DNA of 64,000 bases from Escherichia coli. GTDB taxonomy: Bacteria > Pseudomonadota > Gammaproteobacteria > Enterobacterales > Enterobacteriaceae. This document shows positions 347 through 34,485 of the stretch, piece by piece; positions within the stretch are counted from its first letter, which is position 1; every line of letters starts with the position of its first letter. Below the pieces are notes generated by a model. It did no database searches. It was not told the origin of the DNA and worked only from the letters and a program-made list of their open reading frames with translations. Made by a program: the position numbers and the translations under genes. The stretch is taken from the NCBI RefSeq assembly GCF_051903065.1, contig NZ_CP178438.1; one strand, 5' to 3'.

Positions 347-3300
347 TTATATCTGCCCGCCTACACCTTTAAACTTCTCAATAAACGCGACGATCTTCTG
401 GAAAACCGTCTGTTTTTTCGTCTTATATTGCGGATTTAACGGACTGAGTTTTGGCAATGTCTCGTTTAATTCCGTGCCATTTTCGGTTGCGTATTCGCGT
501 TTTAAAGACGTGCGAATATAGCGTTTCGCCGCCTCTTCATTGAGATTTTCTTCTTTGATCAATGCTGCTGCTTCACGTTGCTGTTCGCGTTGAGCAAAGG
601 TAAAAAACGCGTCAATGATGCTGGCTTTATCCGGCAAATCATCCAGGTTCGTTTGCTGAATAAAATCGACCACCAATCCTTCTTTGGCACGGTTCCCAAG
701 GCTTGAACGAATTAAGCGTTTGACCTCTTCGGTCATTTCGCCCTTACCTTTGTTTTGTCTGTTGTGTTCGAAAATCAGTCCAAGGATATAATCCAGGTTT
801 ATTTCCTGAGACTTCAGCAAATCGACCTCAAAAACCACGTCATCCCAGTCGGTGGTTGATTTTTCTTTTTTGTCAGCTTCTTTCTCACGGCGCTGCCAGT
901 CACGAATATCGTTATAGGCTGAACGGTAATCCTGAATCTTGCGATCAGCAGGGAGACGAATCGTTTGTAATTCAGCGAACTTTTCATCATCCACATAATG
1001 TTCTGCTTTGAATTTTTCTACCGCAACAGGATCGCTAAGATCGATTTGTTGCAGGGCTTTCAGCATGGCAAATTCATCATAGTTTTGCAGGATGTTCTCG
1101 GCACGCAGGTATTCACCAAACAGTTTTACGAAGTCTTTCTTCTCTTTTTCACTTTCAATATTGGCAGGGTCAGGGAACCGTTGTTCCAGTTCTGAAACTA
1201 CTGCCATAAAGCCGCGTTTAGCTTCACCAGTGGCAGCATCAGTAAAGCCTTCCATATACTCTGCATAACTCTTTTCTAACACCACATTTTTGGTATTTTT
1301 ATCACCAAACAGCGTTATGGCATCAATGGTTGAGCGTTCCAGATCCCGGAAAGTGACGATGTTACCGAAGGTTTTAGTGGCGTTATAAATGCGGTTGGTG
1401 CGGGAAAATGCCTGCATCAGGCCGTGAAAACGCAAGTTTTTATCGACGAATAGCGTGTTCAATGTTGGAGCATCGAAGCCGGTTAAAAACATCCCCACGA
1501 CAATTAACAGATCGATATCTTGATTTTTAACCCGTTGGGCTAAATCACGATAGTAGTTCTGAAAACCGTTACTGTCGGTGCTGAAGTTAGTTTTAAAATA
1601 GCTGTTATACTCACGAATTGCAGCGTCAAGAAACTCTTTAGCACTGCTGTCCATTGCGCTGGTATCAAAAGTTTCATCGGAAATTTCACCAATGGCATTT
1701 TGCTCTTCATTGGCGGCAAAGGAGAAGATTGTCGCAACACGCAGCGGTTTATAAGTAGCCGATTTATTAGCTGCTTCCTCTTGTAACCGTTTAAACGTAG
1801 CGTAATAGGCTTTCGCGGCATCCACGCTACTCACTGCCAGCATGGCATTAAAGCCTTTGGAACTTGGGAAAGTACGGTGGGTCTTCTGGCGGAAGTTATT
1901 CAGAATATATTGCGTAATTTCCTGTATACGCATGGGATGAAGAAACGCCTGCTGATTTTCAGCCGCACTCAGTTTTTTCTCGTCGGTTTCTGTCTCTAAA
2001 GACTTAAACTGTGGCCGCACATCGTTGTAGTCCACCTTGAATTTGAGCACTTTTTCATCACGAATCGCATCGGTAATCACATATGAATGCAATTCACGAC
2101 CAAATACGCTGGCGGTCGTTTCTGAGCCTAAAGCGTTTTCCGGGAAAATAGGGGTACCGGTAAAACCAAACTGATAATAGCGTTTGAATTTCTTCTTCAG
2201 ATTTTTCTGCGCTTCTCCAAACTGGCTGCGGTGACATTCATCAAATATAAACACCACTTGCTGATTGTATACAGGCAGGTCGCTTTCTGCTTTCATCAGG
2301 TTATTAAGTTTCTGAATAGTGGTGACGATAATTTTGTTATCGTCCTTATCCAGATTTCGTTTAAGACCTGCTGTATTTTCCGAGCCGTTAACACTATCTG
2401 GCGAAAAACGCTGATATTCCTTCATGGTCTGGTAATCGAGGTCTTTCCTGTCGACCACAAAGAAGACTTTATCAATAAAGTCCAGTTCTGTTGCCAGACG
2501 TGCGGCTTTAAAGCTGGTCAGGGTTTTACCAGAACCGGTTGTGTGCCAGATAAAGCCACCGCTTTCGGGGGTAGACCAGTTTTTCGCTTTATAGGAGCTG
2601 TTGATTTTCCATAAGATACGCTCAGTGGCGGCAATCTGGTACGGTCGCATCACTAGTAGCGTTTGGCTAATATCGAACACGCTGTAGTTCACTAAGACAT
2701 TAAGCAGAGTATGTTTCTGGAAAAAGGTAGCGGTAAAGTCTTTGAGGTCTTTAATCAGCGTGTTGTCTGATTTCGCCCAATTCATGGTGAAATCAAAACT
2801 GTTTTTATCGCGCTTTGTGGTGTTGGCAAAATAACGGGTATCGGTGCCGTTAGAAATGACAAACAGTTGCAGATACTTAAACAGGGAATTTTCGCTGTTA
2901 AAACTCTCTTTACTGTAACGATGTATTTGGTTGAAAGCCTCACGAATCGCCACGCCGCGCTTTTTCAGTTCGATTTGTACCAGTGGTAAGCCATTAACCA
3001 GGATCGTGACGTCATAACGGTTAGCATGAGAACCCGCCTGTTCAAACTGCTGGATAATCTGCACCTTATTGCGCATGAGATTCTTTTTATCTATCAGATA
3101 GATATTTTCAAGACGCCCGTCATCAAAAATAAAGTCGCAGATATAGTCGATATGAATTTTACGGGTTTTATCCAGGATGCCATCGCTGGGGTTGTCCAGA
3201 TACTGCTCCGTGAAACGCCGCCACTCGCTGTCATTAAACACCACACCATTGAGGTTCTGAAGCTGTTCCCGAACATTGGACAGCATCGCCGACTGTGATT

Positions 3301-3584: not shown

Positions 3585-4865
3585 TTAGTTACTGATAGTT
3601 TCAGGTTTGGGAAAACTGAACAGTAAATCACGATAGTACTCGTATTGTTTCTGGCGCAACTCGATTTCACGCGGGAGGCCTTCGGTGATGGAGTTTGTCA
3701 GAGTGTCGAATTTATCGAGTATTGCGACGATACGAGCTTGTTCCTTAAGTGATTTTTCGTGATCTTTAGGATATGGAACCGGAATCATAATTTTTGAAAA
3801 ACCATTAATGAGTAGTGTATTAACTTTTGTTCTGGCTACATACTTTGCTTTTTCAGAAATAAACGAATCGGTTTGCATGTAATAGGAAATAAATTTTGGA
3901 TTCAAAGAATGTCGAAAAGCATAACAGTGATCATGAATAGCGATATCGTCATCCCCAAGCCATGCCACTGCTTTACCAACGTCTTCTACAGTCTCCCCCA
4001 CGTCAGTTATCACGACATCTCCATGTTTGGCATAGCGTAATGACGCTGCCATATCAGCTCTAACCTGTGATAACGAATGAGTTGTGTAAACACCATATCG
4101 TGTATATATCTCACCATAATGGATTACACTGATACCACCATCTTCTACATAATCTGCTTTAGTAAAACGTTTTCCACGAATAAACTCACCAATTTCCCCC
4201 AAAGTCTTCCACTCAACCTCACCCTCTTTAAAACTCAACAACTGGTCGCGATAGTAGTTGTACTGTTTTTTACGCATGGTAAGCTCTGCTGTAAGCTCTG
4301 CTGTAAGCTCAGTAAATTTATCCAGAATCCGAACGATTTCAGACTGGATGGCAAGGGATTTTTCCGGATTGCCCGGGCAGGGGATGGGGATGAGTAGTTT
4401 TGACATCAATGCATTTGAGCTTAGATTCGGCTGTGCTCCGCCCCCTGCAAGGATATAAATAGTCTCTGTATTTAACAATAAAAAATGGTATAAATAATTA
4501 TTGTTTAGAATATTTTCTTTGGGTATAAATTTCCCAACACGTTGGTTAAGATAACATTTTATTCCTTTTTTATAAATTCCCACTTTTCCTGTAGTGGCAC
4601 CTGACATTGCAATCAATATATTTCCCATAGATACCTCAAAGGAGGATAAATCTTCCTTGTAATCATTTAGTGAAAAGTATTTCACCTCATCTAAGTCAAC
4701 ATTAAACCCATCTATATTTGTGATTCTAACTATCGGTAACCCAGTTTCTTTAAATAAGCTGCTTTTAAATGCAAATCCATTTTTAAAATCACAAACATCC
4801 TTCAGGGTTTTCCACTCAACCTCAACCCCATCCAGCAATTTTTCCAGATAACTCAACTCGCTCAT
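3585..4865 (-). CDS. hsdS: Type I R-M specificity subunit (HsdS), type IC, 426 aa, with central TAEL repeat
   Basis: Conserved type IC central and C-terminal regions ([49 protein letters not shown]); start ATG overlaps the hsdM stop (ATGA), indicating translational coupling. Confidence 0.9.
4279..4311 (-). repeat. 12-bp tandem repeat in hsdS encoding (TAEL)2 plus a partial copy; spacer-length determinant of type IC HsdS
   Basis: Plus strand GTAAGCTCTGCT x2 then GTAAGCTCA; the minus strand reads ACT GAG CTT ACA GCA GAG CTT ACA GCA GAG CTT, i.e. [11 protein letters not shown]. Confidence 0.85.
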
Positions 4866-31812: not shown

Positions 31813-32643
31813 CTATTTACCAATATAATTCCATTCACCATTTTTTAATTCAAACAGTTCTGGAAGAGATGACGGTTGCAGAGTCATGCGTTTGAGTGGC
31901 GCATCTTCATCACCGGGGATAACTTTATATCCCATTTTTGCATGGATCTCCGCGGTACCAGGATAGGCTTCTATACCAATGATTGGGTCATTTCCCATCT
32001 CAATATTAGCATTAAGTAATGCGGCAAGGGCGAATCCGGAAGAATTTGCTACCCCTGAGACAGTTATTATCTGATCAATATAGATATCAATTCTTGGCTG
32101 CTCATTGGTCCATCTTTTTGCCTGAGAAGCTGGAAGGGTTGAAATATATCCTATCGTGGTTCCGGCATAACCAGGAACATTGCAACCAGGGCCTAATGTT
32201 ATTTCATGAACTGTATAGTCCTCAACAGGATCGAAAGGGCTCTTCATAAATAAGTTTAGCCGTAAACCTTCTGCTAACTCTGTAGCAGCATGCGCCTTTT
32301 TACATATACCACCATATATTTCGTCTAAAGCTGAGGTGATTTTCAAGTTTCGATAGAGCATACGTCCTGTTGTTGTAATACCATTGAATTCTCTGCATGT
32401 ATCTGTCACATAATTAAATGGCCAGGACTGTTTGCCAATATTAAGTTTTCTAATTTCGACAACGCTTTTTCCATCGTAATTATGGTTATTGCTACGAGCA
32501 AGAGGCAGAAGATAGATATTTTCCGTATCCATGCGTGCATATTCATATCGACGTGTTAACTCATTGTCGACTTTTGGGTGATGAAGGAAGTGATTATCTG
32601 TAATAATTTGACTCTGAAGGGTATTGCTTAATGGCATAGACAT
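31813..32643 (-). CDS. yjiC: Uncharacterised protein YjiC, 276 aa
   Basis: Length and position after uxuR as in K-12; AT-rich gene. Confidence 0.75.
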   Translation of the reverse strand: MSMPLSNTLQSQIITDNHFLHHPKVDNELTRRYEYARMDTENIYLLPLARSNNHNYDGKSVVEIRKLNIGKQSWPFNYVTDTCREFNGITTTGRMLYRNLKITSALDEIYGGICKKAHAATELAEGLRLNLFMKSPFDPVEDYTVHEITLGPGCNVPGYAGTTIGYISTLPASQAKRWTNEQPRIDIYIDQIITVSGVANSSGFALAALLNANIEMGNDPIIGIEAYPGTAEIHAKMGYKVIPGDEDAPLKRMTLQPSSLPELFELKNGEWNYIGK

Positions 32644-32870
32644 AATAGTTACCTTTTATGAGTATTTCACTGATGTTTAGAAAAATAGATAAATTTTTCT
32701 GTAGTAAAAAGAGAAGTAAACAAATGACATGCATGTTTCTGTTGTAGTGATATCAACTCTACACAGTGATATTAAAGGGTAGGAAACACTCTAAAGTATC
32801 AAAAAACGCTCATTTAAAATTATTTGCATGCAATTTAAAAGCATATCTTATTACTGGTAATGACTCCAAC

Positions 32871-33374
32871 TTATTGATAGTGTTTTATGTTCAGATAATG
32901 CCCGATGACTTTGTCATGCAGCTCCACCGATTTTGAGAACGACAGCGACTTCCGTCCCAGCCGTGCCAGGTGCTGCCTCAGATTCAGGTTATGCCGCTCA
33001 ATTCGCTGCGTATATCGCTTGCTGATTACGTGCAGCTTTCCCTTCAGGCGGGATTCATACAGCGGCCAGCCATCCGTCATCCATATCACCACGTCAAAGG
33101 GTGACAGCAGGCTCATAAGACGCCCCAGCGTCGCCATAGTGCGTTCACCGAATACGTGCGCAACAACCGTCTTCCGGAGCCTGTCATACGCGTAAAACAG
33201 CCAGCGCTGGCGCGATTTAGCCCCGACATAGCCCCACTGTTCGTCCATTTCCGCGCAGACGATGACGTCACTGCCCGGCTGTATGCGCGAGGTTACCGAC
33301 TGCGGCCTGAGTTTTTTAAGTGACGTAAAATCGTGTTGAGGCCAACGCCCATAATGCGGGCTGTTGCCCGGCAT
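32871..33374 (-). CDS. insB: IS1 transposase InsB (expressed as InsAB' by -1 frameshift)
   Basis: Canonical IS1 InsB sequence, overlapping insA. Confidence 0.95.
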
Positions 33375-33568
33375 CCAACGCCATTCATGGCCATATCAAT
33401 GATTTTCTGGTGCGTACCGGGTTGAGAAGCGGTGTAAGTGAACTGCAGTTGCCATGTTTTACGGCAGTGAGAGCAGAGATAGCGCTGATGTCCGGCGGTG
33501 CTTTTGCCGTTACGCACCACCCCGTCAGTAGCTGAACAGGAGGGACAGCTGATAGAAACAGAAGCCAC
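33293..33568 (-). CDS. insA: IS1 protein InsA
   Basis: [43 protein letters not shown]...; A6C frameshift site TTAAAAAAC lies at its 3' end. Confidence 0.95.
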
Positions 33569-34092
33569 TGGAGCACCTCAAAAACACCATCATACACTAA
33601 ATCAGTAAGTTGGCAGCATCACCCTTATTACTAATTGGAATTTGATGTTGCTATATTGAGGTCTATATTAATAATGCCTGTGAATGGTATTTTTGATGTA
33701 TTTGATATGTTATTAATTTATATTATTTACAAACTAATTGTTTCAAATAATACATAGATGATTATGCGGAAATAAATAATTTCCCACCGGAATTAAGTAG
33801 CAGCGGTGACAAGTATTTTCATCTACGTAACTATTCGGAATATTCAGAATATACTAGCGGTTTTTTTTTGAGTTTGATGATTTTTATCAAATCATGACTT
33901 TTTTCCTGAAAAGTCAGTAGATATTCATAGGCAAGTAAGGTTTTATACTTTGCTGACAGGATTCAGGCCTGTCTCAGACTGACATGGATGTAATGAACAA
34001 AAGGGAATGGCTATGGAAAATGAGCATCAATACAGTGGTGCCCGGTGTTCAGGGCAAGCCGCATATGTTGCTAAACGTCAGGAGTGCGCAAA

Positions 34093-34485
34093 ATGATGCG
34101 CCAATCACTTCAGGCTGTTTTACCTGAAATTTCAGGAAATAAAACGTCATTGCTGCGTAAATCGGTATGCAGCGATCTCCTCACTCTTTTTAATTCTCCT
34201 CATTCGGCATTACCGTCATTACTTGTTTCAGGCATGCCCGAGTGGCAAGTGCATAACCCGAGCGACAAACATCTCCAGAGCTGGTATTGCCGTCAGCTGC
34301 GTTCTGCACTGTTATTTCATGAGCCACGGATTGCGGCGTTGCAGGTTAATTTGAAAGAAGCGTACTGCCACACGCTGGCGATCAGCCTTGAGATAATGCT
34401 GTACCACGACGATGAACCGCTAACGTTTGATCTGGTCTGGGATAATGGCGGTTGGCGCAGTGCGACGCTGGAGAATGTCAGCTAA
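34093..34485 (+). CDS. iraD: Anti-adapter protein IraD (YjiD), 130 aa
   Basis: [21 protein letters not shown]... matches K-12 IraD; start at the internal ATG. Confidence 0.85.

Follow-up and report, generated by a model that had tools for sequence, protein, structure and literature searches.

A strain-specific IS1 insertion upstream of the iraD P1 promoter in Escherichia coli, in a stretch repeatedly struck by IS1

An IS1 element stands between yjiC and iraD in the 64,000-nucleotide stretch of Escherichia coli DNA analysed here (the window), and the locus raises the question of whether this copy is an old resident of the region or a strain-specific arrival, why it lies where it does, and what it may mean for iraD. 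The product of this gene, IraD, keeps RpoS, the sigma factor of the general stress response, from being degraded upon DNA damage and at stationary-phase entry. Gene annotation was taken from RefSeq record NZ_AP045800.1, which is 100% identical, and the gene order is uxuB, uxuR, yjiC, IS1, ytiC, ytiD, idlP, iraD, hypT and iadA. The divergent neighbour yjiC occupies 31813–32643 on the minus strand, as annotated and as found in the open reading frame list. On the plus strand, the downstream unit ytiC–ytiD–idlP–iraD, defined by the annotation and the literature, is intact at 33674–34485 and comprises ytiC (33674–33757), ytiD (33754–33897), idlP (34013–34096) and iraD (34093–34485). The IS1 end lies 212 bp from the yjiC start codon, and 777 bp now separate yjiC from the iraD-side regulatory DNA.

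The element itself spans 32856–33623 (768 bp), carries its transposase genes on the minus strand, and was recognized as a complete IS1 of an IS1A-family isoform from the sequence read, the open reading frame list and profile matches. Its ends are those of canonical IS1, with GGTAATGACTCCAACTTATTGAT running from 32856 and ATCAGTAAGTTGGCAGCATCACC reaching up to 33623, and the repeat finder pairs them as imperfect terminal inverted repeats, GGTAATGACTCCAACTTATTGAT and GGTGATGCTGCCAACTTACTGAT, identical at 18 of 23 positions. The right-hand, insB-distal repeat (32856–32878) points towards yjiC, and the left-hand, insA-proximal repeat (33601–33623) points towards ytiC and iraD. The insA gene (33293–33568, minus strand) has a GTG start and 91 codons and matches the Pfam families Zn_ribbon_InsA and HTH_Tnp_IS1, and the insB reading frame lies at 32871–33374 on the same strand. 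The A6C frameshift motif TTAAAAAAC is found at 33311–33319, equivalent to IS1 position 305; in the reconstructed fusion, a –1 frameshift at this motif gives an InsAB' transposase of 232 amino acids with an unbroken reading frame. This fusion scores 245 bits against the NCBIfam equivalog model NF033558 (IS1 family transposase; cut-off 100), and 260.7, 98.4 and 73.9 bits against Pfam DDE_Tnp_IS1, HTH_Tnp_IS1 and Zn_ribbon_InsA, respectively. In addition, an inward promoter-like site of IS1 itself is placed by the consensus scan at 33616–33589 on the minus strand, and the identical DNA in NZ_AP045800.1 bears the PGAP name 'IS1-like element IS1A family transposase, programmed frameshift'. Length, ends, insA and insB with the A6C frameshift, profile scores, a duplication in the 8–9 bp range and an empty site elsewhere all agree with membership of the IS1 family.

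With both ends, insA, insB and the A6C frameshift site in place, the copy lacks nothing that IS1 requires, and nothing in the element is new. It shares with the IS1A/IS1R-type copies of E. coli K-12 the 768-bp length, the ends, insA/insB with the A6C motif and the 9-bp duplication; the structure is identical, and the insertion site alone differs. Genomes matching the window contain about 37 IS1-matching places each. Because 100% identical copies occupy other sites in the genomes BE311 and SCU-172, the isoform appears to have been mobile. An earlier note on this DNA, written from the letters alone, had described a full 768-bp IS1 in the yjiC–iraD intergenic region; both ends, insA, insB and the frameshift motif are present at 32856–33623, and the annotation of the identical RefSeq record confirms the location.

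The element is bounded by exact 9-bp direct repeats, identified by the repeat finder and by alignment with K-12. The left copy, CTTATTACT, occupies 32847–32855 and the right copy 33624–33632, 777 bp apart; at two fixed positions, a 9-nucleotide match would arise by chance with a probability of about 4e-6. In K-12 MG1655 the gene order is the same but IS1 is absent between yjiC and iraD, and this 9-mer occurs once at the corresponding place (genome 4,556,524–4,556,532; 4025–4033 of locus record L004), which puts the insertion site at –469 to –461, counted from the iraD ATG. With IS1 and one repeat copy taken out, the window aligns with MG1655 without a gap across the junction, at 992 of 1021 identities. 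Because this removal restores the gapless K-12 match, the element represents a simple strain-specific IS1 insertion, and the possibility that K-12 carries the same IS1 is rejected. Other K-12 derivatives have the uninterrupted site as well. The earlier note had claimed an intact 9-bp duplication and had given the interval 32847–33632, which proves to run exactly from repeat to repeat; it had also named the K-12 alignment as the deciding comparison, and neither the IS1 nor the duplication is present in MG1655.

How widely this insertion is shared was surveyed in 5,426 complete E. coli genomes with 240-bp junction queries in which 120 bp of flank are joined to 120 bp of IS1 end. Both junctions gave single-piece 100% matches in two genomes only, 23CRST027 and 23CRST031, both isolated from human faeces in Santo Domingo, Ecuador. 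Because they share the sampling place and have near-identical genome sizes, we count them as what is probably one clone. The reconstructed empty-site query found the locus in 4,897 of the 5,426 genomes, K-12 derivatives included, and uninterrupted in 4,871 of these 4,897; IS1 is responsible in about 23 of the 26 genomes that are interrupted within the 240 bp around the site. An insertion at this position is rare and restricted to one clone, and two RefSeq genomes already contain it with annotation. In about 10% of the 5,426 genomes, the 240 bp around the insertion site are absent or strongly diverged.

A longer, 2.5-kb query matched 241 genomes at 80% coverage or more. These are not in general carriers of the window's insertion: in all but three of them the IS1 is another one, located at the yjiC 3' end. 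This other copy, of the ATCC 8739 type, lies in the last codons of yjiC in about 238 complete genomes and is flanked by the duplication ATATAATTC; mapped junctions place its site at 3001–3009 of the K-12 record L004, roughly 31823–31831 in the window, and at 1501–2268 of the ATCC 8739 record L002. This yjiC copy agrees with the window's in element, orientation and neighbourhood, but it sits about 1 kb away, changes the C-terminus of yjiC and occurs far more widely. In addition, yjiC is mostly or wholly lost beside an IS1 in 23CRST009, where the loss starts at the junction of this yjiC copy, and in 600055 and AR_0369.

The position of the insertion can be read against the published promoters of iraD, for which we used the positions given by Sass et al. 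(bioRxiv 10.1101/2021.05.20.444958) and Park 2017 (PMC5574718). Sass, Ferrazzoli and Lovett described an iraD upstream region of 672 bp with transcription starts at –417 (P1) and –137 (P2), of which P1 brings about the late-log and stationary-phase rise and P2 is active in all growth phases; AZT induces both, both respond to ppGpp, and a DnaA box, TTTTCCATA, lies at –81 (bioRxiv 10.1101/2021.05.20.444958). Park et al. 2017 reported the same two promoters, the coupling of iraD translation to the leader ORF27 (now idlP) and its repression by CsrA, and the published P1 fusions reached back 81 bp or more from the start (PMC5574718). RNA-seq by Lovett in 2024 found ytiC cotranscribed with iraD, with an AZT induction of 260-fold, and yjiC induced 11-fold (PMC11228462).

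Consistent with the published length, the yjiC–iraD spacer is exactly 672 bp once IS1 and one repeat are removed, and the published –81 box is found as TATGGAAAA at about –80 in the window. Counting from the iraD ATG at 34093 places the P1 start at about 33676 and the P2 start at about 33956. The probable P1 core, TTGATG–16 nt–TATATT, was located at 33642–33669 on the plus strand by the consensus promoter scan together with the published start site, and its TATATT –10 hexamer sits at –12 to –7 of the P1 start. The IS1 end at 33623 lies 52 bp upstream of that start and 18 bp upstream of the likely –35 hexamer. P1 keeps its native DNA up to –52 of the start; the DNA further upstream has been shifted by 777 bp, and the insA-proximal IS1 end stands in its place. 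The P1 core, P2, the DnaA box, the CsrA sites, the ytiC–ytiD–idlP leader and iraD itself are all intact.

Our search for IS1 junctions from about –1090 to +160 of the iraD ATG, in both orientations and with chimeric queries for the opposite one, reveals that the window's copy has company. Within the approximately 1,250 bp surveyed, IS1 is found in 45 genomes, representing about 28 distinct events. The IS1 copies of representatives were mapped onto K-12 coordinates one by one, 730V1 and the duplicate members of several groups excepted. Ten distinct events, carried by 22 genomes and divided five and five between the orientations, fall within 65 bp over P1, from –474 to –410 (33619–33683 in the window), so that this stretch has been struck independently by IS1 in at least nine lineages other than that of the window (locus records L003, L007, L010, L011, L017, L020, L021, L023 and L030, and the window). 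The same element, with its own 9-bp duplication in each case, occurs at –474 in cM2a, –468 in 20KM2222, –443 in p10A/p10B and –436 in BKQ37E, all in the orientation of the window's copy at –469, and in the opposite orientation at –458 in F5656C1, –457 in SCU-172, –429 in Esc20/CNR20180903 and –418 in the nine genomes of the FDAARGOS_1291 group; AR_0369 has an IS1 in the opposite orientation at –436 together with its yjiC deletion. The insertion points lie 1 to 51 bp from that of the window, and half are in the opposite orientation. The nearest, 20KM2222, does not share the window's insertion by descent or recombination: its flanks are about 98% identical, its duplication is TTATTACTA, offset by 1 bp, and the event is clearly independent. 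Five of the other insertions split or remove the P1 –35 or –10 hexamer or the start site; that of the window belongs to the five among the ten that spare the core promoter.

Clustering of this degree departs from uniform placement. A scan statistic for 10 of 28 events in one 65-bp interval, picked after the data had been seen, gives P of about 1e-4; by comparison, about one genome-copy would be expected per random 65 bp, given about 63,000 chromosomal IS1 places in the surveyed genomes, and 22 were observed. AT-richness alone is not supported as the cause, as the most AT-rich stretch, from –412 to –340 (80–88% AT), has no IS1 insertion. Inspection of the target by eye found no match to the IHF consensus. 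Elsewhere in the surveyed region, IS1 occupies the P2 start site in WEM25 (–138), ytiD in KW21, idlP in NH-21, the idlP/iraD overlap in 2406_w1 (with an 8-bp duplication) and the interior of iraD in LCP22S3_I2 (+32) and 361 (+118); iraD has been lost next to an IS1 in Res13-Lact-EB12-05 and LHM10-1, and yjiC has received several IS1 events. We found no paper in the literature searched that describes IS1 insertions at yjiC–iraD. The IS1 copies at iraD or idlP, or beside a lost iraD, lie at 2508–3275 of L018, 2422–3189 of L019, 2038–2805 of L009, 2085–2852 of L008, 2011–2778 of L006 and 2232–2999 of L024, and the LHM10-1 region abuts brnT/brnA near yjiA.

We propose that an intact IS1 transposed, probably recently, into the AT-rich 672-bp divergent region between yjiC and ytiC–ytiD–idlP–iraD, making the usual 9-bp target duplication and no other rearrangement, and that the site was most likely chosen through an IS1 target preference for this short stretch and not for any special function. 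A simple recent transposition of this kind, with the upstream DNA of P1 displaced and the site set by target preference, is very probably the right explanation. The clustering over P1 is accordingly read here as an IS1-specific target preference suggested by the mapped insertion points. H-NS capture may possibly lie behind it, by analogy with other insertion sequences for which such capture has been shown (PMC11335895).

The same clustering could arise if the insertion were an adaptive regulatory mutation that disturbs P1 and tunes RpoS through IraD, so that the recurrence would record repeated selection and not target bias. RpoS levels in E. coli are well known to be under selection, and ten independent hits in 65 bp of P1 against the uniform expectation, together with the unhit AT-rich stretch next to it, would suit this reading. 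So would the IS1 insertions expected to lower iraD output in WEM25, NH-21, 2406_w1, 361 and LCP22S3_I2 and the two iraD losses. Selection for loss of P1, however, should also bring in other insertion sequences and deletions, whereas the interruptions of the P1 stretch are nearly all IS1; the core promoter is intact in half of the P1-zone insertions, including the one under study; no event has spread widely, each being found in one or a few genomes (nine in the largest group); and the neighbouring yjiC is hit about equally often. We regard an adaptive origin as unlikely on this balance. A broader proposal takes P1 as a natural IS1 hot spot, with at least 10 independent events per 65 bp in unrelated lineages, whose recurrence partly reflects repeated selection that retunes IraD-dependent RpoS stabilisation; it has a small but real chance of holding. 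If repeated selection were at work, the window's copy would be one allele in a parallel-evolution series.

Under simple transposition guided by target preference, an effect of the insertion on iraD expression, which the earlier note had suggested, is plausible, as judged from promoter positions. Expression driven by P2, both basal and DNA-damage-induced, would be unchanged. P1, which is induced in stationary phase and by ppGpp, loses its native upstream DNA and may be weakened or somewhat de-repressed. A modest change in P1 regulation is possible. Strong activation would be unlikely, because no consensus-quality outward or hybrid promoter was found at either junction: the consensus scan of 32600–34150 gave none spanning them, and by eye neither the TTGGCA nor the TTGGAG hexamer of the IS1 ends is followed by an acceptable –10 at 16–18 nucleotides downstream. 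The element's own transcription is directed towards yjiC.

Precedent nevertheless exists for an IS1 that switches on a neighbouring operon, and the copy might activate ytiC–iraD or yjiC either through an outward or hybrid promoter at one of its ends or by relieving H-NS silencing. The H-NS-silenced bgl operon is established to be activated by upstream IS1 or IS5 insertions, and Battesti in 2012 reportedly observed an effect of H-NS on IraD. For the bgl case, PMC11335895 cites Reynolds 1981. Insertion-sequence activation of bgl is the closest functional analogy to the present locus, the likeness being that an insertion sequence has entered AT-rich regulatory DNA ahead of a promoter and displaced what lies upstream; activation of bgl, however, was demonstrated experimentally, whereas at iraD it is conjectural. 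A TTGGCA hexamer also lies 8 nucleotides from the tip of the IS1 end that faces iraD. Against activation stand the junctions themselves, with no hybrid site in the scan and no acceptable –10 behind either hexamer, and the even split of P1-zone insertions between the two orientations, five and five, which shows no bias. Activation by the element is very unlikely.

We give practically no credence to an assembly artefact or to a larger event, be it a composite transposon or a deletion or inversion mediated by IS1. Other strains do show deletions and rearrangements next to an IS1 at this locus (23CRST009, 600055, AR_0369, Res13-Lact-EB12-05, LHM10-1 and SCU-172), but both flanks here are collinear with K-12, the 9-bp duplication is exact, the identical structure recurs in two independently assembled complete genomes, no second IS1 that could form a composite transposon exists anywhere in the 64-kb window, and flanks drawn from different loci or a repeat absent from the source genome were both tested and excluded.

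As a simple transposition, the window's insertion is a routine IS1 polymorphism in one clone, an ordinary event involving a known element. Its mildly interesting part is the local IS1 hot spot over iraD P1, which may merit follow-up. An IS1 end 52 bp upstream of the growth-phase promoter of iraD is a candidate cause of strain-to-strain differences in RpoS. Furthermore, the IS1 hits in the iraD control region, idlP and iraD form a natural allelic series for dissecting an unusually long regulatory region, and the P1 zone offers a concrete site for studying IS1 target choice.

Several smaller features of the locus were also noted. The P1 spacer carries a single-nucleotide polymorphism in several lineages (L010, L011, L020, L023 and L030), which read TATTGATGTCTATATT where K-12 and the window (33650–33665) read TATTGAGGTCTATATT. 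At 33754–33757, two single-nucleotide differences change the K-12 TGGC to TAGA, an allele present in 5 of the 30 loci examined; it introduces a stop in ytiC, which has 27 amino acids as compared with 33 in K-12, and changes the ytiD start from ATG to ATA, and PGAP still annotates ytiD. The annotated ytiC ATG (33674–33676; 4075–4077 of the K-12 record L004) lies at –419, 2 nucleotides upstream of the published P1 start at –417, and therefore this start codon would be off the P1 transcript. Park et al. 2017 described a shorter ORF23 in place of the annotated ytiC (PMC5574718).
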